Sequence record: MK962758
DNA: 64,000 nucleotides
From: Shigella phage JK55
Strand: one strand, 5' to 3'
In this document: positions 23,909 to 30,545 of the stretch, one piece after another
Numbering within the stretch: position 1 is the first letter of the stretch
Layout of the letters: every line of letters starts with the position of its first letter
The notes under the pieces: generated by a model
Databases searched by the model: none
The model's input: the letters and a program-made list of their open reading frames with translations, nothing else
Told to the model about the DNA's origin: nothing
Made by a program: the position numbers and the translations under genes

Positions 23909-25324
23909 ATGAGCGAATTATTTAAACATGCGCACCTTCATGCAGGTCGAACTGAAAATGGTGCTGTAAACCATACTTCATCAATGTCTGCTCTAGTAAA
24001 CTTTTACAAAGCTGCTGGTTCAAGCCGTAGCAATGTAGAAATCTTACCAGACCTGTTCTACAAAGCTTTGCGTGAGGATGTTGATGTTGCAGTTCGTATT
24101 TTACTGCATATGCGAGATGTACGAGAAGGTATGGGTGAGCGTAAAGCCTTCAGAACTGTTTTGCTTCAAGCAATTGAAGACAAAGTTTTAGAGCCTACAC
24201 AGGTTCTTCGCATTATGGATAAGGTTGCAGAACTTGGTCGTTTTGATGACTTCAAAATCTTCGTAGGTACTCGTTTCGAGACGGATGCCTTCAAACATTT
24301 AGAGGCAGCATTACTAGACCCTGCAACAGCAGGTTTGGCAGCTAAGTGGTTACCACGAGTCAAACCACGTCATAAGCAGTTTGTAAAACGTTTCTGCAAG
24401 TTTGCCAACTTGAGTGAGAAAGAGTACCGCACACTGTTATCTGCACTGTCTGATACGGTTGAGCAAAAAATCTCTGCTAATGAGTTTGGTAAGATTGACT
24501 ACAGCAAGATTCCTTCACTCGCTGCTGCACGTTACCAAAAGCTCTTTAACCGTAAAGATGGAGAACGTTACAAAGCTTACATCGAATCACTCTCAAAGGG
24601 TGAGGCTAAGATTAACGCTGGTGCTGTTTATCCATACGATGTGATTAAGTCTATCAAGCATGGTAATGCAGATGTTGCCAATGAGCAGTGGAAAGCACTA
24701 CCAAACTGGATGGCAGAAGGTGAGAACATCTTGTGTATGACTGATGTTTCAAGCTCAATGTCTTGGGTGAATCTTGGTTCAATCACTGCTCTGGATATTG
24801 GTGTATCACTTGCCTTGTATGTAGCAGAACGCAATACAGGTTGCTTTAAGAATGAGTTAATGGTTTATTCAACAAACCCTCACTTCATCGAACTGAGTGG
24901 TGATTTACGAAACCGTCATCGTCAGGTGATGCGACACGTTGAATATGGCTCAACTAACTTACAAGCAGCTTTTGACCGCATTCTTGAAACAGGTAAAAGA
25001 AACAACTTGACTCAGAAAGATATGCCAAGTAAGCTTATCATCTTCTCCGATATGGAGTTCAATCAGGTTGATGGAGCTAACGGTCGTACAAACTTTGAAG
25101 CAATTCAGAGTAAGTACAAAAAAGCTGGATATGAGATGCCACAACTGGTATTCTGGTACTTAGCAAACCGTAATGGTACTTGCGAAGTGTCTGTTAAGGA
25201 TAACGGTGTAGCAATGGTATCTGGTTTCTCTCCAGCCACTTTAAAAGCTTTGCTTGGTGGTGAGAAGTTTGACCCAATCAGTGTAATGCTCAAAGCAGTA
25301 ATGATTGACCGTTACATCTGGTAA
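23909..25324 (+). CDS. vWA-domain protein with MIDAS motif (DUF2828-like or Ro60/TROVE-like; unresolved)
   Basis: MIDAS-type DxSxS motif (CMTDVSSSMS) at about residue 280; N-terminal TENGA motif; lies directly upstream of the tRNA array. Confidence 0.5.
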   Translation: MSELFKHAHLHAGRTENGAVNHTSSMSALVNFYKAAGSSRSNVEILPDLFYKALREDVDVAVRILLHMRDVREGMGERKAFRTVLLQAIEDKVLEPTQVLRIMDKVAELGRFDDFKIFVGTRFETDAFKHLEAALLDPATAGLAAKWLPRVKPRHKQFVKRFCKFANLSEKEYRTLLSALSDTVEQKISANEFGKIDYSKIPSLAAARYQKLFNRKDGERYKAYIESLSKGEAKINAGAVYPYDVIKSIKHGNADVANEQWKALPNWMAEGENILCMTDVSSSMSWVNLGSITALDIGVSLALYVAERNTGCFKNELMVYSTNPHFIELSGDLRNRHRQVMRHVEYGSTNLQAAFDRILETGKRNNLTQKDMPSKLIIFSDMEFNQVDGANGRTNFEAIQSKYKKAGYEMPQLVFWYLANRNGTCEVSVKDNGVAMVSGFSPATLKALLGGEKFDPISVMLKAVMIDRYIW

Positions 25325-25342: not shown

Positions 25343-25371
25343 TTGACAATGTGTTTGATACCCTTTAATAT
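25343..25371 (+). promoter_or_regulatory. sigma70-like promoter ahead of tRNA cluster (TTGACA-17-TAATAT)
   Basis: -35 25343-25348, -10 25366-25371. Confidence 0.55.
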
Positions 25372-25489
25372 GTTCTACATAGAAACGAAACGAGAGCTTT
25401 TCTAAGATACTGAAAAATATTTTAAAAAAGTTCTTGACAATCACTAAAAAATAATGTTAAAGTGGTTACATAGAGTTTGAAAAGTTTAT

Positions 25490-25566
25490 CTCTGTTTAGC
25501 TCAGCTTGGTAGAGCGTTCCGTTTGGGGCGGTAAGGCCGGAGGTTCAAGTCCTCCAACAGAGACCA
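25490..25566 (+). tRNA. tRNA-Pro (anticodon TGG)
   Basis: Hand-folded cloverleaf: 7-bp acceptor CTCTGTT/AACAGAG, D-arm GCTC..GAGC, anticodon loop TTTGGGG, T-arm GGAGGTTCAAGTCCTCC, CCA encoded. Confidence 0.7.
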
Positions 25567-25573
25567 AATTAAT

Positions 25574-25651
25574 GTTCCAGTAGACAAAATGGTATAGTCA
25601 CCACTCTTTCAAAGTGGATATCTGAGGGTTCAAATCCCTTCTGGAACGCCA
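25574..25651 (+). tRNA. tRNA-Glu (anticodon TTC)
   Basis: Acceptor GTTCCAG/CTGGAAC, anticodon stem CCACT/AGTGG with loop CTTTCAA, T-arm GAGGGTTCAAATCCCTT, CCA encoded. Confidence 0.6.
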
Positions 25652-25738
25652 GTTTTGACAGAAGACCAATTACAGCAAACTGAATCTACTCATCTGACAC
25701 GAAATCGGACAAAGAAGATATTTGGTCTGGTCATTAAG
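25652..25738 (+). ncRNA. repeated structured element, copy a (ACAGAAGACCAATTACAGCAA ... TTGGTCTGG)
   Basis: Shares 5' motif and covarying closing stem with copies b, c, d. Confidence 0.4.
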
Positions 25739-25741
25739 AAT

Positions 25742-25818
25742 TGCGGGTATAGAGAAAGGGCGTCTCACATGTCTCATTAGCATGGTATCGGCAGGTTCGA
25801 CTCCTGCACCCGCCTCCA
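25742..25818 (+). tRNA. tRNA-Met or Ile2 (anticodon CAT)
   Basis: Anticodon loop CTCATTA, T-arm GCAGGTTCGACTCCTGC, acceptor about 6/7 bp, CCA encoded. Confidence 0.55.
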
Positions 25819-25819
25819 A

Positions 25820-25892
25820 ATTTACAGAAGACCGTTTACAGCAATACTTATTAAATTTTTAGCGGAAAAATTGAAAGATGCGGTCTGGTAAT
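25820..25892 (+). ncRNA. repeated structured element, copy b (ACAGAAGACCGTTTACAGCAA ... CGGTCTGG)
   Basis: As above; closing stem AGACCG/CGGTCT. Confidence 0.4.
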
Positions 25893-25901
25893 ACTAAACA
25901 T

Positions 25902-25975
25902 GGTTAGGAAGCACATAAGGTATGTGCGGTCGCCTGTTAAGCGAATGGCACAGGGTTCGAATCCCTGACTAACCG
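25902..25975 (+). tRNA. tRNA-Asn (anticodon GTT)
   Basis: D-arm GCAC..GTGC, anticodon loop CTGTTAA, T-arm CAGGGTTCGAATCCCTG; no CCA encoded. Confidence 0.55.
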
Positions 25976-25986
25976 CAAAATTTAAA

Positions 25987-26075
25987 TGTGTCGTTATCCC
26001 GTAGATGGTAGCGGTGGGGACTGTAAATCCCTTGTCATTGAGACTCGGTAGGTTCGACTCCTACACGGCACACCA
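25987..26075 (+). tRNA. tRNA-Tyr (anticodon GTA), long variable arm
   Basis: Anticodon loop CTGTAAA, about 15-nt variable arm, T-arm GTAGGTTCGACTCCTAC, CCA encoded. Confidence 0.6.
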
Positions 26076-26080
26076 ATAAA

Positions 26081-26158
26081 GGTTATGTAGTTTAATTTGG
26101 TTAAAATACTCCCCTGTCACGGGAGATGATGAGGGTTCAAATCCCTTCGTAACCGCCA
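26081..26158 (+). tRNA. tRNA-Asp (anticodon GTC)
   Basis: Anticodon stem CTCCC/GGGAG with loop CTGTCAC, T-arm GAGGGTTCAAATCCCTT, CCA encoded. Confidence 0.6.
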
Positions 26159-26216
26159 ATTTTGAGAGGGCTATTTAGCCCCTCCCTTAAAGAGTTCTTA
26201 CGAGTATTCTTTAAAG

Positions 26217-26296
26217 GAGTAGAAGACCAAATACAGCAAGAATGTATGATATTTTCAAGCCAATTCAATTTTGAAAAAATTTAAAACTTGGTCTGG
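26217..26296 (+). ncRNA. repeated structured element, copy c (AGAAGACCAAATACAGCAA ... TTGGTCTGG)
   Basis: As above; closing stem AGACCAA/TTGGTCT. Confidence 0.4.
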
Positions 26297-26306
26297 CTCA
26301 ACAAAT

Positions 26307-26450
26307 TTACAGAAGACCGTTTACAGCAAAACTTAAACAATCTATTTCTCGGTAAAGAAAAGGCGAAGGTTCGATTCCTTCACTCGGCAGAGGTCGAGTT
26401 GGTGTAATGGTAGCACTTAAGATGATAAACAACGGTCTGGTAATTATCTT
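26307..26450 (+). ncRNA. repeated structured element, copy d, expanded; contains tRNA-like T-arm (GAAGGTTCGATTCCTTC) and D-arm-like segment
   Basis: Closing stem AGACCGTT/AACGGTCT; internal T-loop motif and TGGTGTAATGGTAGCAC D-arm-like segment, but no complete cloverleaf found. Confidence 0.35.
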
Positions 26451-26585
26451 TGTAGATAAGTTATTAAGCTTACCTGTGAGTATGCGACCACAAAGGGTGA
26501 AAGGGTAAATTCTAGATTTAAACCCAAAAAGTCACATCGCTACAGACCTTAAGCAAGTCTGGGTAGCTTATCTACAAAGATAATT
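26441..26585 (+). repeat. 19-bp perfect inverted repeat (TAATTATCTTTGTAGATAAG / CTTATCTACAAAGATAATT) enclosing 105 bp
   Basis: Arms at 26441-26460 and 26566-26584; candidate RNase III-type processing stem or miniature inverted-repeat element. Confidence 0.6.
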
Positions 26586-26589
26586 TAAT

Positions 26590-26665
26590 GGAAGTGTAGC
26601 AGAATGGTGATGCGGCAGACTTTTAATCTGACAGGCGATGGGTTCGAATCCCTCCACTTCTACCA
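26590..26665 (+). tRNA. tRNA-Lys (anticodon TTT)
   Basis: Acceptor GGAAGTG/CACTTCT, anticodon loop CTTTTAA, T-loop TTCGAAT with weak T-stem, CCA encoded. Confidence 0.5.
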
Positions 26666-26669
26666 AAAT

Positions 26670-26746
26670 GGTTCAGTCGCAGATAAGGTAATGCAAGGGT
26701 CTCATAAGCCCTATGAATGTGGGTTCGAATCCCATCTGAACCTCCA
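26670..26746 (+). tRNA. tRNA-Met or Ile2 (anticodon CAT), second copy
   Basis: Acceptor GGTTCAG/CTGAACC, anticodon stem AGGGT/GCCCT loop CTCATAA, T-arm GTGGGTTCGAATCCCAT, CCA encoded. Confidence 0.6.
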
Positions 26747-26748
26747 AT

Positions 26749-26823
26749 TGTGGGTTAGCATAAATGGTAATGCAAACGGCTGATAACCGTTAGAAGAGGG
26801 TTCGATACCCTCACCTACAACCA
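26749..26823 (+). tRNA. tRNA-Ile (anticodon GAT)
   Basis: Anticodon stem AACGG/CCGTT loop CTGATAA, T-arm GAGGGTTCGATACCCTC, CCA encoded. Confidence 0.6.
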
Positions 26824-26838
26824 AATTCAATAAAGTTG

Positions 26839-26867
26839 TTGACATTGAGATGTGACTACTTTATAGT
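26839..26867 (+). promoter_or_regulatory. sigma70-like promoter inside tRNA cluster (TTGACA-17-TATAGT)
   Basis: -35 26839-26844, -10 26862-26867; about 200 nt of non-tRNA sequence follows before the next tRNA. Confidence 0.55.
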
Positions 26868-27070
26868 ACCCTTAGTTTTCGTTGCGTAGCGTCTATTTTG
26901 CAAATTTAAAATAAATGCAAACGACAATGTTTTTCTGGCAGTAGCTTGATAGGCTAAACACCAGTGAGGTCTTCCAATCCCTCATCAAAGAATTTGGCGT
27001 ACTCGCCCACGGTATGATTAATAAGGTGGGCATCTTTAAGGGCTTTCTAAGAGAGTCTTTAAAGATTAAT

Positions 27071-27147
27071 GCACCCTTAGTTCAACTGGACAGAGCAAAT
27101 GACTTCTAATCATTGAGTTACAGGTTCGAATCCTGTAGGGTGCGCCA
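27071..27147 (+). tRNA. tRNA-Arg (anticodon TCT)
   Basis: Acceptor GCACCCT/AGGGTGC, anticodon stem AATGA/TCATT loop CTTCTAA, T-arm ACAGGTTCGAATCCTGT, CCA encoded. Confidence 0.65.
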
Positions 27148-27289
27148 ATTAGTTAGCAGATTACTTAGACGACCTAAGCGGGTCTTCCTGTAGGGAGGTG
27201 GTCTGTATCTCATGTTTTCCAGAACATGTAAATAATCTGAGAAGGGGCTTTACAGTGTTGAGATAATACGGTAAGTTTCGAATTATAGT

Positions 27290-27372
27290 ATGGGACGATG
27301 TTAAGACTCTAAGGCATGAGCAACGGCCTCCAAAACCGTTTCAAAGGGGTTCAACTCCTCCGTCCCATGCCA
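27290..27372 (+). tRNA. atypical tRNA-like gene (possible anticodon CCA in an enlarged 9-nt loop; isotype unresolved)
   Basis: Perfect acceptor ATGGGAC/GTCCCAT, T-arm AGGGGTTCAACTCCTCC, CCA encoded, but 83 nt long with about 7 extra nt between acceptor and anticodon arm; stem AACGG/CCGTT encloses CCTCCAAAA. Confidence 0.35.
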
Positions 27373-27385
27373 AAGTCTTATTAGT

Positions 27386-27473
27386 GGTAGGTAGCGGCTA
27401 ATGGTAGCCAAACTGTCTTGAAAACAGTTGCCACTGTAGAGATACGGTGAGGGTTCGACTCCTTTACTTACCG
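27386..27473 (+). tRNA. tRNA-Ser (anticodon TGA), long variable arm
   Basis: Anticodon stem ACTGT/ACAGT loop CTTGAAA, long variable arm, T-arm GAGGGTTCGACTCCTTT; no CCA encoded. Confidence 0.55.
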
Positions 27474-27730
27474 CCTAATAAGATTTAAAGCCAAGCTTCA
27501 TTCGGATGTTGCTTTGGTATCCCTCGTGTATTGTCGTACACACTAATAAAGCACCTAGTAGGTGTCACGGAGAAGAGATAATATCAAGCTCTCCAAAGGT
27601 TCTAGTCACCGGATTAAACAAGACTATGCAAAGACCTTTTTAGGTCTTTTTAGAGGGCTTCTAAGGTTATTACAGCTTGTTGTGGAACCTTGTTGCTTAG
27701 GTTCTTAGAAGTTCTCTAAAAAGGTTTAAT

Positions 27731-27808
27731 GGGAGATTGACGGTAATTGGTAAACCTATCTCGCTTAGAACGAGATGTTTGAGGGTTCGAATCCCTTGTC
27801 TCCTACCA
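27731..27808 (+). tRNA. tRNA with anticodon TAG (Leu by code) but short variable arm
   Basis: Anticodon stem TCTCG/CGAGA loop CTTAGAA, T-arm GAGGGTTCGAATCCCTT, CCA encoded; class-I length. Confidence 0.45.
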
Positions 27809-27815
27809 AATTAAT

Positions 27816-27891
27816 GCAGGTGTAGCAAAATGGTTATGCGGCTGACTCTTAATCAGTAAGACGATGGGTTCAATTCCCTCCACCTGTACCA
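27816..27891 (+). tRNA. tRNA-Lys (anticodon CTT)
   Basis: Acceptor GCAGGTG/CACCTGT, anticodon stem GCTGA/TCAGT loop CTCTTAA, T-loop TTCAATT, CCA encoded; paralog of tRNA-Lys(TTT). Confidence 0.5.
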
Positions 27892-27897
27892 AACAAT

Positions 27898-27973
27898 GGG
27901 GTCATAGTTTATATGGTTAAAATTCGAGTTTTGCAAACTTGGGAACTGAGTTCAATTCTCAGTGACTCCACCA
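27898..27973 (+). tRNA. tRNA-Ala (anticodon TGC)
   Basis: Anticodon stem CGAGT/ACTTG loop TTTGCAA, T-arm CTGAGTTCAATTCTCAG, CCA encoded. Confidence 0.5.
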
Positions 27974-27979
27974 ATTAGT

Positions 27980-28054
27980 GCATCCATAGTTTAAACGGGA
28001 AAATTACAGTCTTCCAAACTGAGGTTGAGGGTTCGATTCCCTCTGGATGCTCCA
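27980..28054 (+). tRNA. tRNA-Gly (anticodon TCC)
   Basis: Perfect acceptor GCATCCA/TGGATGC, anticodon loop CTTCCAA, T-arm GAGGGTTCGATTCCCTC, CCA encoded. Confidence 0.6.
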
Positions 28055-28060
28055 AACAAT

Positions 28061-28137
28061 GCTGCTTTCGTATAATTGGCTATTACACATCCCTTGTAAG
28101 GATGGAAATGCAGGTTCGAGTCCTGTGAGCAGCACCA
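28061..28137 (+). tRNA. tRNA-Thr (anticodon TGT)
   Basis: Anticodon stem CATCC/GGATG loop CTTGTAA, T-arm GCAGGTTCGAGTCCTGT, CCA encoded. Confidence 0.65.
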
Positions 28138-28140
28138 ATT

Positions 28141-28232
28141 CAGAGGTCAAGTGAAAGACCGCTGGTGTCAACTGAAGACCGTAACAAATTCCACGGAGTT
28201 GAGTTAGCGGCACAACTTCAGACCTCTTTCAC
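28141..28232 (+). ncRNA. structured non-tRNA element between tRNA-Thr and tRNA-Val (nested inverted repeats)
   Basis: AGAGGTC...GACCTCT outer inverted repeat, CTGAAG...CTTCAG inner repeat, contains the GAAGACCGT motif shared with copies a-d; no T-loop motif. Confidence 0.35.
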
Positions 28233-28307
28233 ACTCGCTTAGTTTATATGGTAAAACATCACCCTTACAAGATGAAGAAAAAGGTTCAAGTCCTTTAGTG
28301 AGTACCA
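28233..28307 (+). tRNA. tRNA-Val (anticodon TAC)
   Basis: Acceptor ACTCGCT/AGTGAGT, anticodon loop CTTACAA, T-arm AAGGTTCAAGTCCTT, CCA encoded. Confidence 0.5.
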
Positions 28308-28308
28308 T

Positions 28309-28386
28309 GTTCCAGTATCCCAATTGGCAGAGGATGCAAGCTCAAACCTTGTATTAGTGACGGTTCGAATCCGTCTTGGAACACCA
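28309..28386 (+). tRNA. tRNA with anticodon CAA (Leu by code) but short variable arm
   Basis: Acceptor GTTCCAG/TTGGAAC, anticodon stem GCAAG/CTTGT loop CTCAAAC, T-arm GACGGTTCGAATCCGTC, CCA encoded. Confidence 0.45.
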
Positions 28387-28405
28387 ATTTTAAGAGGCTA
28401 TTTAG

Positions 28406-28963
28406 ATGAGATATTTGAAGTATGCTTCATGGATTTTCTTAGCTTTACTAGAACCATTTGCAGCAACCCTAGCAGTCATCTTAGCACCTTTCGTAGTTCC
28501 ATTCTACAGTGAGAAGAAAGGGCATCTACCTTTTGGATTCAGATGGATGGAGACCTATGACAACCCGATTGATGGTGATAAAGGCCACGTTGAGAGATGG
28601 GCTAAGATTAGAAAGATTGGCAAGCTCGGTGTTTATATGCAGAGAGTTGGATGGCTCTGGAGAAACAAAGCTTATAACTTCTCTTACCATGTATTAGGAA
28701 GAGATGTAAAAGATGTTACTAAGTGGAAAGGTAATATCAACGTAAGTTCTGACCCTGAAGATAATCAGACAGGTTATCTCCTAATGTGGAACAACAATGC
28801 TTGGGGATTATTCGCTTTTATTCCGTCAATTAAAATCTTTGGTAAACAGTTTTACTGGAGAATTTATGTTGGATGGAAACTAAAAAGTGTTGTCCCAGAA
28901 GAAAGAGCATTCTCAAGGGAAAGAGTTATGTTGGCATTCTTTATTCATCCACTGAGAAAGTAA
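28406..28963 (+). CDS. hypothetical membrane protein embedded in tRNA cluster
   Basis: N-terminal hydrophobic segments (IFLALLEPFAATLAVILAPFVVPF); AAGAGG RBS 9 nt upstream. Confidence 0.55.
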   Translation: MRYLKYASWIFLALLEPFAATLAVILAPFVVPFYSEKKGHLPFGFRWMETYDNPIDGDKGHVERWAKIRKIGKLGVYMQRVGWLWRNKAYNFSYHVLGRDVKDVTKWKGNINVSSDPEDNQTGYLLMWNNNAWGLFAFIPSIKIFGKQFYWRIYVGWKLKSVVPEERAFSRERVMLAFFIHPLRK

Positions 28964-28971
28964 AGATTTAA

Positions 28972-29047
28972 AGGGGATTAGTTTACAAGGTTAAAACCTC
29001 GGTCTTTGAAATCGAAGAAGTTGGTTCAATTCCAACATCCCCCGCCA
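28972..29047 (+). tRNA. tRNA-Gln (anticodon TTG)
   Basis: Anticodon stem TCGGT/ATCGA loop CTTTGAA, T-arm GTTGGTTCAATTCCAAC, CCA encoded. Confidence 0.55.
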
Positions 29048-29049
29048 AT

Positions 29050-29128
29050 GCTCCATTACTCCAATTGGCAGAGAGGCCAGACTTAAAATCTGTGTTATGT
29101 ATCGGTTCGAATCCGATATGGAGTACCA
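29050..29128 (+). tRNA. tRNA with anticodon TAA (Leu by code) but short variable arm
   Basis: Acceptor GCTCCAT/ATGGAGT, anticodon loop CTTAAAA, T-arm ATCGGTTCGAATCCGAT, CCA encoded; D-arm paralogous to the CAA tRNA. Confidence 0.45.
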
Positions 29129-29133
29129 AATTT

Positions 29134-29209
29134 AGCGGTATAGCATAACTGGCAATGCAGCAGTCTCTGAAGCTGTCTTATTAAGGTTCAAATCCTTATG
29201 CCGCTGCCA
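29134..29209 (+). tRNA. tRNA-Gln (anticodon CTG)
   Basis: Acceptor AGCGGTA/TGCCGCT, anticodon loop CTCTGAA, T-arm TAAGGTTCAAATCCTTA, CCA encoded. Confidence 0.5.
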
Positions 29210-29240
29210 CTTCTAAGGGTTCTTACGAGAGTCCTTAAAT

Positions 29241-29316
29241 GTGGCCTTATCATAAATGGTAATGACCCATGCTGTGAACATGGTCTATACGGGTTCAAAT
29301 CCCGTAGGTCACCCCA
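29241..29316 (+). tRNA. tRNA-His (anticodon GTG)
   Basis: Anticodon stem CCATG/CATGG loop CTGTGAA, T-arm ACGGGTTCAAATCCCGT, CCA encoded. Confidence 0.65.
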
Positions 29317-29322
29317 ATTTAT

Positions 29323-29398
29323 AGTCCAAGTAGCTTATATGGTTAAAGCGCGTGTCTGAAAAACATGAGAAGAGGGTTCGAATCCCACTGGACTACCA
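29323..29398 (+). tRNA. tRNA-Phe (anticodon GAA)
   Basis: Anticodon stem CGTGT/ACATG loop CTGAAAA, T-loop TTCGAAT, CCA encoded. Confidence 0.55.
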
Positions 29399-29416
29399 AT
29401 TTCAAAGGTGCTTAAT

Positions 29417-30149
29417 GAAAGAGATGACAGAACAAGGTAAGGAGATTTTTAATCTCTTAAAAACCGGTAAAGGGTTTTCTAACCCACTTATTACTGGTGC
29501 AGCAGTTCTCGGTGGAACCGTAGCTGCTTCTACATCACTTGTAAGCTCTATTAGTTCTGTAACAGACCCTACAATGCAGGAGAAACTTGTTGCTGCTGGA
29601 CTTACAACAGTCCTTCTAAACAGCTTTACAACAAGCCTTACAAGCACTACAGCAACTACTAAAACTCTGACAGACTACGGTCAAAAGTCTATTGATGAGT
29701 TTTCATCACGTATGCAGGTAGCAAAGGGGTATTCCAATGTTATGGGTGCAGCAGGAGAGCAAGTTGGTTGTACACCATTCAGTGGTATCATGGGTGTTGC
29801 TACAGAGTATGGTCAAAAAGCTATTAACATGATGAACAGTACACTAGATAGTGTTAATGGTGTGTTAAGTGACTTACAAGATGCTATTGATAAGGGTCTT
29901 GATACTGTTTCTGATTTAGCTAATCAGGCTGTTAGTAAGATTAATGAAGGTATTTCAAAGATTACAGCTTATGCAGATGAAGTTGTGCAGATGATTGAAG
30001 AAGAAGCTTCCCTTATTGCAGAGTACCTTAAAACGAATATCAATGGGTTCTTAGCAGGTATCTTACCAGACTGGTTTGATGATGCCTGTAAAACTGGTGT
30101 GATTGACACTATTGCAACACCAGAAATGAAGAGCGCATTACAGAAATAA
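29417..30149 (+). CDS. hypothetical protein (Ser/Thr/Ala-rich N-terminal region) embedded in tRNA cluster
   Basis: Start moved to ATG 29417 (AAAGGTG upstream) because the track start 29352 lies inside tRNA-Phe. Confidence 0.5.
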
Positions 30150-30150
30150 T

Positions 30151-30243
30151 GGAAGATTAACCCTAAAAGGTAAGGGAGCAGTTTGCTAAACTGCCAGTAG
30201 CTGAGAAATCGGTGTACCAGTTCAAGTCTGGTATCTTCCTCCA
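30151..30243 (+). tRNA. tRNA-Ser (anticodon GCT), long variable arm
   Basis: Perfect acceptor GGAAGAT/ATCTTCC, anticodon stem GCAGT/ACTGC loop TTGCTAA, about 20-nt variable arm, T-arm ACCAGTTCAAGTCTGGT, CCA encoded. Confidence 0.7.
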
Positions 30244-30247
30244 ATTT

Positions 30248-30323
30248 GAATCCGTGACAGAAATGGATATGTGCCTGTCTGCAAAACAGGTTTATAAGGG
30301 TTCGAGTCCCTTCGGATTCTCCA
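30248..30323 (+). tRNA. tRNA-Cys (anticodon GCA)
   Basis: Perfect acceptor GAATCCG/CGGATTC, anticodon stem CCTGT/ACAGG loop CTGCAAA, T-arm AAGGGTTCGAGTCCCTT, CCA encoded. Confidence 0.7.
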
Positions 30324-30485: not shown

Positions 30486-30509
30486 GACGGTCTCTGTGCC
30501 GTCTTTTTT
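30486..30509 (+). terminator. rho-independent terminator (GACGG-loop-CCGTC + TTTTTT)
   Basis: 5-bp GC stem plus T-run ahead of the morphogenesis module. Confidence 0.5.
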
Positions 30510-30545
30510 AAGGAGAAACATGGTTAATTATTTGGAGAAAACATA

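Follow-up and report, generated by a model that had tools for sequence, protein, structure and literature searches.

Shigella phage JK55 (sequence record MK962758) carries a large tRNA array at positions 25490–30323 of the 64,000-nt stretch of one strand that we analysed and refer to as the window. Within this array we identified three leucine tRNA genes lacking the long variable arm (arm-less tRNA-Leu), an 83-nt gene with a tryptophan anticodon, and several structured RNAs in the spacers. As a whole, the array is best explained as a translation-support module that includes the arm-less Leu tRNAs, the Trp-like gene and the spacer RNAs, a reading that we put at a probability of about 70%. Our observations concern the presence, folding, conservation and covariation of the genes, their identity nucleotides, and the codon usage of the phage. 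Judging by sequence, the window is part of a Felixounavirus (Ounavirinae) genome, because its 5-kb array region is 97.6% identical to Escherichia phage vB_EcoM-VpaE1 (sequence search) and the open reading frame (ORF) that follows the array is a Felix O1-type large terminase at 99.8% identity.

Under this explanation, the array would be transcribed rightward from predicted sigma70-like promoters in a virulent phage of the Felix O1 type, and it would supply tRNAs for 19 amino acids, a set that the non-canonical Trp-anticodon tRNA may complete. The Leu isoacceptors (UAG, CAA and UAA) would represent a phage-specific type I form that has lost the long arm and kept the elements used by leucyl-tRNA synthetase (LeuRS), and they would decode TTA, TTG and CTA/CTN, codons far more frequent in the phage than in its host. 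The spacers near a Ro60-fold protein gene would carry the probable Y-RNA-like partners of this protein, together with a promoter-driven RNA with a tag frame. What the explanation predicts further is expression and processing of these RNAs, aminoacylation by LeuRS and tryptophanyl-tRNA synthetase (TrpRS), decoding, and binding of RNA by the protein.

ARAGORN called 25 tRNA genes at 25490–30323, all on the + strand, and 23 of them reached the gathering score of the Rfam tRNA model (RF00005). Three carry Leu anticodons and were found by both ARAGORN and Rfam, namely tRNA-Leu(TAG) at 27731–27808, tRNA-Leu(CAA) at 28309–28386 and tRNA-Leu(TAA) at 29050–29128 (all +), each with A73 and with RF00005 scores of 44–47.5 bits, above gathering. 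Bacterial tRNA-Leu is taught as a class-II tRNA. In the structures drawn by ARAGORN, the variable loops of the three genes measure 4, 5 and 7–8 nt, respectively, which confirmed the short loops seen in the hand folds of the first-pass annotation, and none of them has the variable arm of at least 10 nt with a stem that characterizes class-II tRNA-Leu. Their length without CCA is 75–76 nt. A paired extra arm is present in the ARAGORN structures of the tRNA-Tyr and of both tRNA-Ser genes of the same array.

For a comparison of Leu identity, 16 Leu genes, 15 of them arm-less, were extracted from six phages. A73 with an encoded CCA end was found in 16/16 genes, the variable loop ended in T in 16/16, and all 15 arm-less genes had a D stem of 3 bp closing the loop (C)AATTGG(C/T)A(G)A. 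At the sequence level, the LeuRS determinants A73, the A15-U48 Levitt pair, G18G19 and A20a are all kept in the arm-less Leu tRNAs. The reported identity set of E. coli LeuRS comprises the discriminator A73, the A15-U48 pair, G18G19 and A20a; neither the anticodon nor the long arm is crucial, and arm-truncated tRNA-Leu is still active (PMC9976931). Since the arm-less Leu tRNAs keep every reported LeuRS element, the host LeuRS most likely charges them with leucine. None of the Leu tRNAs here has G3.U70, a long arm, or an anticodon recognized by another synthetase. We applied the established identity rules in excluding other enzymes (the long arm for seryl-tRNA synthetase, SerRS, and the anticodons for the valyl, isoleucyl, phenylalanyl and lysyl enzymes, ValRS, IleRS, PheRS and LysRS).

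An alignment of 14 arm-less Leu tRNAs from eight phages was predicted by RNAalifold to fold into a cloverleaf, with compensatory changes in 18 of 20 stem pairs, and the Leu(TAA) gene was at least 99% identical in 215 of 272 records. Arm-less Leu tRNAs were also present in Mooglevirus ESh20, Kolesnikvirus Omen, the T5-like Epseptimavirus bastian and the KVP40-like vibriophage phi-pp2, as well as on three metagenomic phage contigs (one of 143 kb). Pectobacterium phage Wc4 has an arm-less TAG gene together with a TAA gene of the long-arm form (87 nt, with a variable loop of 14 nt). ESh20, Omen and Wc4 stand for three further lineages of Ounavirinae. As far as gene sequences tell, the arm-less tRNA-Leu occurs widely among other large phages and is no peculiarity of Felixounavirus. 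In the literature searched, which did not cover the older T5 tRNA papers, we found no remark on arm-less phage tRNA-Leu, and the word 'variable' is never used in the dedicated tRNA study of phage Sf14.

Two unrelated tRNA-Leu(TAG) alleles occupy the same Felixounavirus position (window 27731–27808; locus L006, 4101–4177; locus L010, 2529–2605). One type, with an odd linker and D arm, occurs in the window, Wc4 and L012, and the other, with a standard Leu D arm, in ESh20, SP116, L011 and L013.

With regard to codon usage, the fractions of phage Leu codons were 0.28 for TTA, 0.27 for CTT, 0.14 for TTG, 0.13 for CTG and 0.12 for CTA, and AGA made up 0.42 of the phage Arg codons. In E. coli, CTG is the dominant Leu codon and AGA is rare. 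Phage codon usage fits a decoding role for the Leu tRNAs. A comparison of the anticodons with codon usage had been proposed in the first-pass annotation; the Leu anticodons indeed match the codons preferred in the phage usage that we computed.

The second non-canonical gene is the tRNA-Trp-like gene at 27290–27372 (+), identified by fold, conservation and covariation, with the anticodon CCA at 27330–27332. It is present in 235 phage records and has never been annotated as a tRNA, the position being blank in most records and given as a hypothetical protein in a few. The gene departs from the canonical cloverleaf geometry (2-nt linker and normal D arm) in that the acceptor and D stems are separated by a linker of 10 invariant nucleotides, GAUGUUAAGA, and that the D stem has 3 bp. 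Because of this linker, both tRNA detectors fail on it: it was not called by ARAGORN (default) or by the Rfam tRNA model, its best Rfam match was tRNA-Sec at 23 bits, and ARAGORN reported it only once its thresholds were lowered to 80%, misreading the anticodon as four bases (agca). The element had been described as tRNA-like with a 9-nt loop enclosing CCA; a conserved, tRNA-shaped gene is indeed present, but the loop is better read as a 7-nt anticodon loop closed by a C31.A39 mismatch. This loop is CUCCAAA (UUCCAAC or UUCCAAA in relatives), with U33, CCA and A37 invariant. The closing mismatch is conserved, and it also occurs in the canonical tRNA-Trp of Erwinia phage Omen, which lacks the 83-nt gene.

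Copies of the Trp-like gene from Felixounavirus, Mooglevirus and Wc4 were aligned. The anticodon stem (AACGG/CCGUU, GUAAG/CUUAC, GUAGG/CCUAC) and the D stem (CUC/GAG, CAC/GUG, CAU/GUG) were compensated, and the acceptor stem showed compensatory changes at its top. In the window, the gene has A1-U72, G73 and an encoded CCA end, with G1-C72 in Wc4. The acceptor determinants of E. coli TrpRS are G73 and A1-U72. A1-U72 is documented for E. coli tRNA-Trp (PMC9976931). Together with the CCA anticodon and the CCA end, these nucleotides fit a Trp identity. Recent published analyses report that Ounavirinae encode tRNAs for every amino acid but tryptophan. If it functions as its sequence suggests, the Trp-like gene may fill this gap and complete the 20-amino-acid set. 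We note that its D-loop sequence GGCAUG (27313–27318) is complementary to its 3' end CAUGCC (27366–27371), and the Wc4 counterparts GGUGUG and CGCGCC are still able to pair. Because this pairing is kept in Wc4, it suggests an alternative conformer that would hide the CCA end.

Directly upstream of the array, the gene at 23909–25324 (+) encodes a protein with DUF2828 and DUF7788/vWA regions (PHROG 850). Pfam returned only DUF2828 and DUF7788, and searches by sequence (phmmer and a 38-sequence profile) found no Ro60 in the PDB, so that fold comparison alone worked. The AlphaFold2 model (predicted local distance difference test score, pLDDT, 85; predicted template modelling score, pTM, 0.85) had TROVE/Ro60 structures as its top Foldseek matches (9kop, 2i91, 1yvr and 9l5y; E-values 7e-9 to 7e-7; TM-scores 0.54–0.64). 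These matches are full-length and include the Ro60 of Thermus phage phiLo. On the basis of this model, the protein has a Ro60 (TROVE + vWA) fold. The DUF2828 family was found in 709 phage records, including mycobacteriophage genes annotated as 'Ro-like RNA binding protein', which tblastn reached at 33.6% identity. For the orthologue of the upstream protein in phage Bas63, gp130, the Ro60-like fold was already noted in the PhageMaP preprint, which describes gp130 as countering the Ppl defence system and surmises that Y RNAs might be among the annotated tRNAs (PMC11482910).

Four Y-RNA-like modules were identified in the spacers, all on the + strand. Module 1 (25657–25732; GAC-AGA-AGACCAA-U-UACAGCAA ... 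UUGGUCU-G-GUC), module 2 (25822–25891) and module 3 (26217–26299) were recognized by motif and fold, and module 4 (26307–26443), which contains a permuted tRNA-like domain, by fold and RNAalifold. The 64-kb window contains the 19-nt motif AGAAGACC-R-W-W-TACAGCAA four times, always within the array on the + strand and always with GGTCTGG 58–125 nt further on; for the 16-nt core AGACC-N3-UACAGCAA, four occurrences were observed in the window against 0.12 expected. In the predicted folds, the modules consist of an outer helix, an AGA/G internal loop, and an inner helix (AGACCRN/NYGGUCU) that adjoins single-stranded UACAGCAA. Module 4 has, in order, a V hairpin, a T arm (GAAGG-UUCGAUU-CCUUC), a closed acceptor-like hairpin and a D arm. 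YrlA Y RNAs show the order V, T, closed acceptor and D, and are encoded on the same strand within 4 kb of the Ro60 gene (PMC4201824). Module 4 has this order and the terminal helix, and it lies 1.0 kb downstream of the Ro60-fold gene on the same strand. Across seven tRNA-like modules, RNAalifold showed compensation at 13 of 23 pairs.

The modules are YrlA-like in architecture but are not members of the Rfam YrlA family (RF02553). We keep them outside this family because there was no RF02553 match at E ≤ 10 in window positions 26290–26470 and because the YrlA motif GNCGAAN0-1G is not present near the 5' end, AGACC-N3-UACAGCAA standing in its place. No Rfam Y RNA match was found in the window either, and the matches to Dicty_Class_I_RNA, Plastid-ycf2 and miRNA models were sub-threshold noise. 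A module on the 143-kb contig (L013) does match Rfam YrlA with 40.9 bits (E 1.7e-7; gathering score 69). Modules are present in VpaE1, REP9, SP116 and ESh20, and modules with UACAGCAA also occur in L006, L011, L012, L013 and L014; at the array loci of Omen and Wc4, both the modules and the upstream DUF2828 gene are absent. Downstream of each of three distant DUF2828 genes (identity 63%, 56% and 51%) there is a tRNA array, and the helices of its UACAGCAA modules, though different in sequence, remain complementary (AGACUCU/AGAGUCU, AGAAGCU/AGCUUCU, AGAAGGU/ACCUUCU, GUAGUU/AACUAC). Among four distant homologues, the tRNA array lies directly downstream in three and ~3.4 kb upstream in one. Because the modules co-occur with DUF2828, the distant helices covary and the L013 module matches YrlA, we consider four or five modules to be probable RNA partners of the Ro60-fold protein.

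The possible fifth module is part of a 145-nt RNA at 26442–26585 (+), whose terminal stem has 24 bp (fold z-score −6.5; none of 200 shuffles equally stable) and which has a homologue with a changed stem in L011. Its inner hairpin at 26540–26566 (ACAGAC-CUUAAGCAA-GUCUGG) resembles a minimal Y-like module. We considered whether module 1 pairs through its 3' strand with module 2 (5' strand), an arrangement with a tRNA-Met inside, and rejected this, as the variable helix positions match within modules; the module-specific helices of the distant loci also contradict it. In Vibrio phage phi-pp2 (L014, 5973–5990), a UACAGCAA motif precedes the start codon of the Ro60-fold gene by ~20 nt and might be an autoregulatory site; no UACAGCAA motif was found in the 5' untranslated region of the Ro60-fold gene of the window.

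A further spacer RNA, at 26874–27031 (+), is conserved and contains a frame resembling the tag frame of transfer-messenger RNA (tmRNA). The RNA is ~160 nt long and lies downstream of a strong internal promoter. Its frame runs from GCA at 26917 through 10 codons (ANDNVFLAVA) to two stops at 26947–26952. The Rfam permuted-tmRNA model aligned to the resume-codon region with 30.7 bits, below the gathering score of 47. The element was found in 627 phage records, never annotated as an RNA gene, from families that include Ounavirinae, Ackermannviridae, Klebsiella siphoviruses, T1-like phages and SSU5, with variants such as ANDAQFLAVA, ANEEMYLAVA, ANDNTFLAVA and ANDDVVLMAA. Among close relatives, most changes in the tag frame are synonymous; the stops stay in place, and the hairpins show covariation. 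No tRNA-like domain for this RNA was found by ARAGORN (default), Rfam or inspection in the window, SE14, EspM4VN, YX3973 and Omen.

Several other interpretations of this region were tried and rejected. An acceptor pairing of the tag RNA with tRNA-Arg (GUACCCU/AGGGUGC) is not conserved in ESh20 or Omen. An ATG-started frame over the tag (MQTTMFFWQ-stop) was discarded, as the substitutions are synonymous in the GCA frame and not in the ATG frame. The 'permuted tmRNA' calls of relaxed ARAGORN runs (80–95%), with T arms borrowed from adjacent tRNAs, were regarded as artefacts, and so was a second tag from such runs, AQLQTSFTLA, which overlaps tRNA-Val; the ANDNVFLAVA frame itself was kept. We also observed that the 12 nt with which tRNA-Arg(TCT) begins, GCACCCTTAGTT (27071–27082), recur as GTACCCTTAGTT at 26868–26879, a stretch that overlaps the −10 box of the internal promoter. 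This repeat may be a trace of insertion or duplication.

Several points weigh against the translation-support explanation. The Leu(TAG) gene scores 44.5 bits in Rfam and has an odd linker of 3–4 nt, and a G1.U72 wobble tops the acceptor stem in 11 of the 14 aligned arm-less Leu tRNAs, which differs from the host tRNA-Leu pattern. The Trp-like gene, failing both tRNA detectors, may not be a decoder. The type-I tRNA-Leu(CAA) of Streptomyces coelicolor was no substrate for E. coli LeuRS, an enzyme described as charging type-II tRNA-Leu only (PMC6614811), and the Bas63 tRNA genes are mostly non-essential in laboratory hosts (PMC11482910). Both this enzyme's failure on a foreign type-I substrate and the dispensability in Bas63 would suit Leu-anticodon genes that are uncharged decoys or decaying pseudogenes. 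We regard this as very unlikely in view of the near-identity of the Leu(TAA) gene (215/272 records), the covariation of 18/20 stem pairs across phage families, the invariance of A73, U48, the D-loop determinants and the CCA end, and anticodons that match the codons preferred by the phage. It is more improbable still, to the point of being nearly negligible, that these tRNAs carry an amino acid other than leucine and recode Leu codons: LeuRS ignores the anticodon, so that an identity set by body elements could in principle drift, but the body elements are exactly the Leu set, without G3.U70 or the long arm for SerRS, the anticodons lack ValRS, IleRS, PheRS and LysRS determinants, and the phage proteins align with their homologues with no sign of recoding. 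The arm-less form could instead be mainly an escape variant that, through loss of the arm and changes such as G1.U72, is not seen by a host or phage nuclease, toxin or defence system recognizing class-II tRNAs, so that Leu decoding would survive destruction of host tRNA-Leu. This proposal is compatible with the translation-support explanation, to which it adds a selective reason, and it draws on the recurrence of the arm-less form among unrelated virulent phages rich in tRNA genes, a pattern that points to selection more than to drift, on the report of the Bas63 counterpart of the upstream Ro60-fold protein as an anti-defence factor against Ppl, and on evasion of tRNA-targeting defences by phage tRNAs through sequence changes, as reported in one study (PMC10264068). 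We nonetheless consider it somewhat unlikely, as no nuclease targeting the variable arm of tRNA-Leu is named in the literature examined, the Tyr and Ser tRNAs of the array keep their arms, T2 keeps a long-arm tRNA-Leu, and the Sf14 study found nuclease evasion unsupported.

For the 83-nt gene, a role as a regulatory tRNA-like RNA or decoy, for example one bound by the Ro60-fold protein or by a tRNA-binding enzyme, is a possibility that we take seriously while leaning away from it. The invariant linker on which ARAGORN and Rfam both fail, the D-loop/3'-end pairing preserved in Wc4 and the presence of other tRNA mimics in the array all speak for such a role. A tRNA-Trp, on the other hand, better accounts for the invariance of U33, the CCA anticodon and A37, for the match of A1-U72, G73 and the CCA end to the Trp set, and for the covariation of the anticodon stem. 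The gene would also supply the sole amino acid missing from the set, Omen has in its absence a canonical tRNA-Trp with the same C31.A39 mismatch, and the 83-nt gene lacks the UACAGCAA module of the Y-like RNAs.

The remaining tRNA genes of the array, on the + strand and called by both ARAGORN and Rfam unless indicated, are tRNA-Pro(TGG) (25490–25566), tRNA-Glu(TTC) (25574–25651), tRNA-Asn(GTT) (25902–25976), tRNA-Asp(GTC) (26081–26158), tRNA-Lys(TTT) (26590–26665), a second tRNA(CAT) (26670–26746), tRNA-Ile(GAT) (26749–26823), tRNA-Arg(TCT) (27071–27147), tRNA-Ser(TGA) with its long arm kept (27386–27475), tRNA-Lys(CTT) (27816–27891), tRNA-Ala(TGC) (27898–27973), tRNA-Gly(TCC) (27980–28054), tRNA-Thr(TGT) (28061–28137), tRNA-Val(TAC) (28233–28307), tRNA-Gln(TTG) (28972–29047), tRNA-Gln(CTG) (29134–29209), tRNA-His(GTG) (29241–29316), tRNA-Phe(GAA) (29323–29398), tRNA-Ser(GCT), also with its long arm kept (30151–30243), and tRNA-Cys(GCA) (30248–30323). 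Two genes were missed by RF00005 and called by ARAGORN, namely tRNA-Tyr(GTA) with its long variable arm kept (25988–26075) and an atypical first tRNA(CAT) (25742–25818), which lies between Y-RNA-like modules 1 and 2, has a U1.C72 mismatch, U37 and a 3-nt linker, and may be an initiator, an elongator or an Ile2-type tRNA. The called set supplies one or more species for 19 amino acids, with Trp absent. The anticodons that had been read from hand folds (from Pro, Glu and two CAT genes through to Cys, with Leu TAG, CAA and TAA) were matched exactly by the 25 ARAGORN genes, neither ARAGORN nor Rfam gave a differing anticodon or a pseudogene call among them, and the hand-folded number and positions agree.

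Two ORFs are embedded in the array on the + strand. The ORF at 28406–28963 encodes 185 amino acids with a hydrophobic N-terminus and DUF7338 (Pfam E 3e-61, PHROG 2143), and coincides exactly with the membrane protein gene proposed in the first-pass annotation. The second, predicted there at 29417–30149, is present, but starts at 29415 (29415–30149; 244 amino acids, DUF7217, Pfam E 1.6e-87, PHROG 2114); it is found at the same position in Omen, Wc4 and L011. Sigma70-like promoters (+) were identified upstream of the array at 25343–25371 (TTGACA-17-TAATAT), upstream of tRNA-Pro at 25434–25463 (TTGACA-18-TAAAGT, with TG) and inside the array at 26839–26867 (TTGACA-17-TATAGT, 11/12). Two internal promoters had been predicted earlier; the array holds this one near-consensus site, other internal sites are weak, and the number of promoter-like sites (16) is not above chance when compared with the shuffled expectation (11.6 ± 4.1). 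A terminator-like hairpin with a T run lies downstream of the array at 30486–30511 (+). Between the RNA genes, hairpins with the loop UUCUUACGAG or UUCUAAGAG recur at 26182–26219, 27034–27064 and 29214–29237, and also in Omen and L011; it is possible that these are processing sites. Further structured spacers at 28138–28232 (z −3.0) and 27600–27730 (z −2.8) received no family assignment.

A total of 355 phage records match the 5-kb region, and 237 of them cover most of it. In VpaE1, REP9 and SP116, the same locus is annotated with 20–27 tRNA genes and the same two ORFs. With annotations in hundreds of GenBank records, the tRNA array itself is a known, long-annotated Felix O1-like feature. What we did not find described in the literature searched are the arm-less Leu tRNAs and the aberrant Trp-type gene, both of them real and conserved variants, and the spacer RNAs are probably more novel than the tRNAs themselves.

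These results matter in several respects. In hundreds of genomes of coliphages and Salmonella phages, the only Leu tRNAs encoded are arm-less ones with LeuRS determinants, and these would, if charged, be natural minimal LeuRS substrates useful for identity studies and tRNA engineering. The Trp-marked gene, if our reading is true, changes the conclusion that Ounavirinae encode tRNAs for all amino acids but Trp and exposes a blind spot in tRNA annotation. The spacer modules are concrete Y RNA candidates for a Ro60-fold protein linked by experiment to counter-defence, and turn a published speculation into testable coordinates. It appears to us unlikely that all four parts of a composite RNA module hold jointly, that is, LeuRS-charged arm-less Leu tRNAs, a functional tRNA-Trp, UACAGCAA Y RNAs and a tmRNA-derived RNA; such a composite may extend to Felix O1-like and many other large virulent phages, with the tag frame used in some new way.

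When compared with known systems, the phage Leu tRNAs share a short variable loop, A73 and core elements with the S. coelicolor type-I tRNA-Leu(CAA) and the human mitochondrial tRNA-Leu(UUR). In those two systems, the own LeuRS has been shown to take type-I substrates, whereas the phage tRNAs must use the host enzyme; unlike both, they keep an enterobacterial-type D arm and the A15-U48 pair. Engineered arm-less E. coli tRNA-Leu variants (cited in PMC9976931) likewise depend on A73 and on tertiary contacts of the D and T loops, but they are laboratory constructs, while the phage genes form a natural family conserved across phages. The T2 cluster is likewise a phage tRNA array (Gln, Leu, Gly, Pro, Ser, Met, Tyr, Asn and Arg), and differs in having 9 tRNAs in total and a tRNA-Leu annotated at 84 nt, the long-arm length.

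The tag RNA resembles tmRNA (SsrA) in its GCA-started frame without a start codon, the AND..L.VA pattern, stops within a hairpin and an A-rich upstream tract, and is unlike it in that no Ala-accepting tRNA-like domain (G3.U70, T arm and CCA) was found and in having its own promoter. As in Ro60/YrlA systems (RF02553; Chen et al. 2014), a Ro60-fold gene is followed within ~1.2 kb by same-strand RNAs with a bulged terminal helix, but the window has four or five modules interleaved with tRNAs. With respect to the proposal made for Bas63 gp130, our Y-RNA candidates lie in unannotated spacers and not in annotated tRNAs. The closest comparison is with the Felix O1-like clusters of VpaE1, REP9, SP116 and Sf14, which share gene order and the two ORFs with the window and likewise lie between a Ro60-fold gene and the terminase gene, with no structural difference; in their GenBank annotations, the gene corresponding to 27290–27372 is never called and the short arm of the Leu tRNAs passes without comment.

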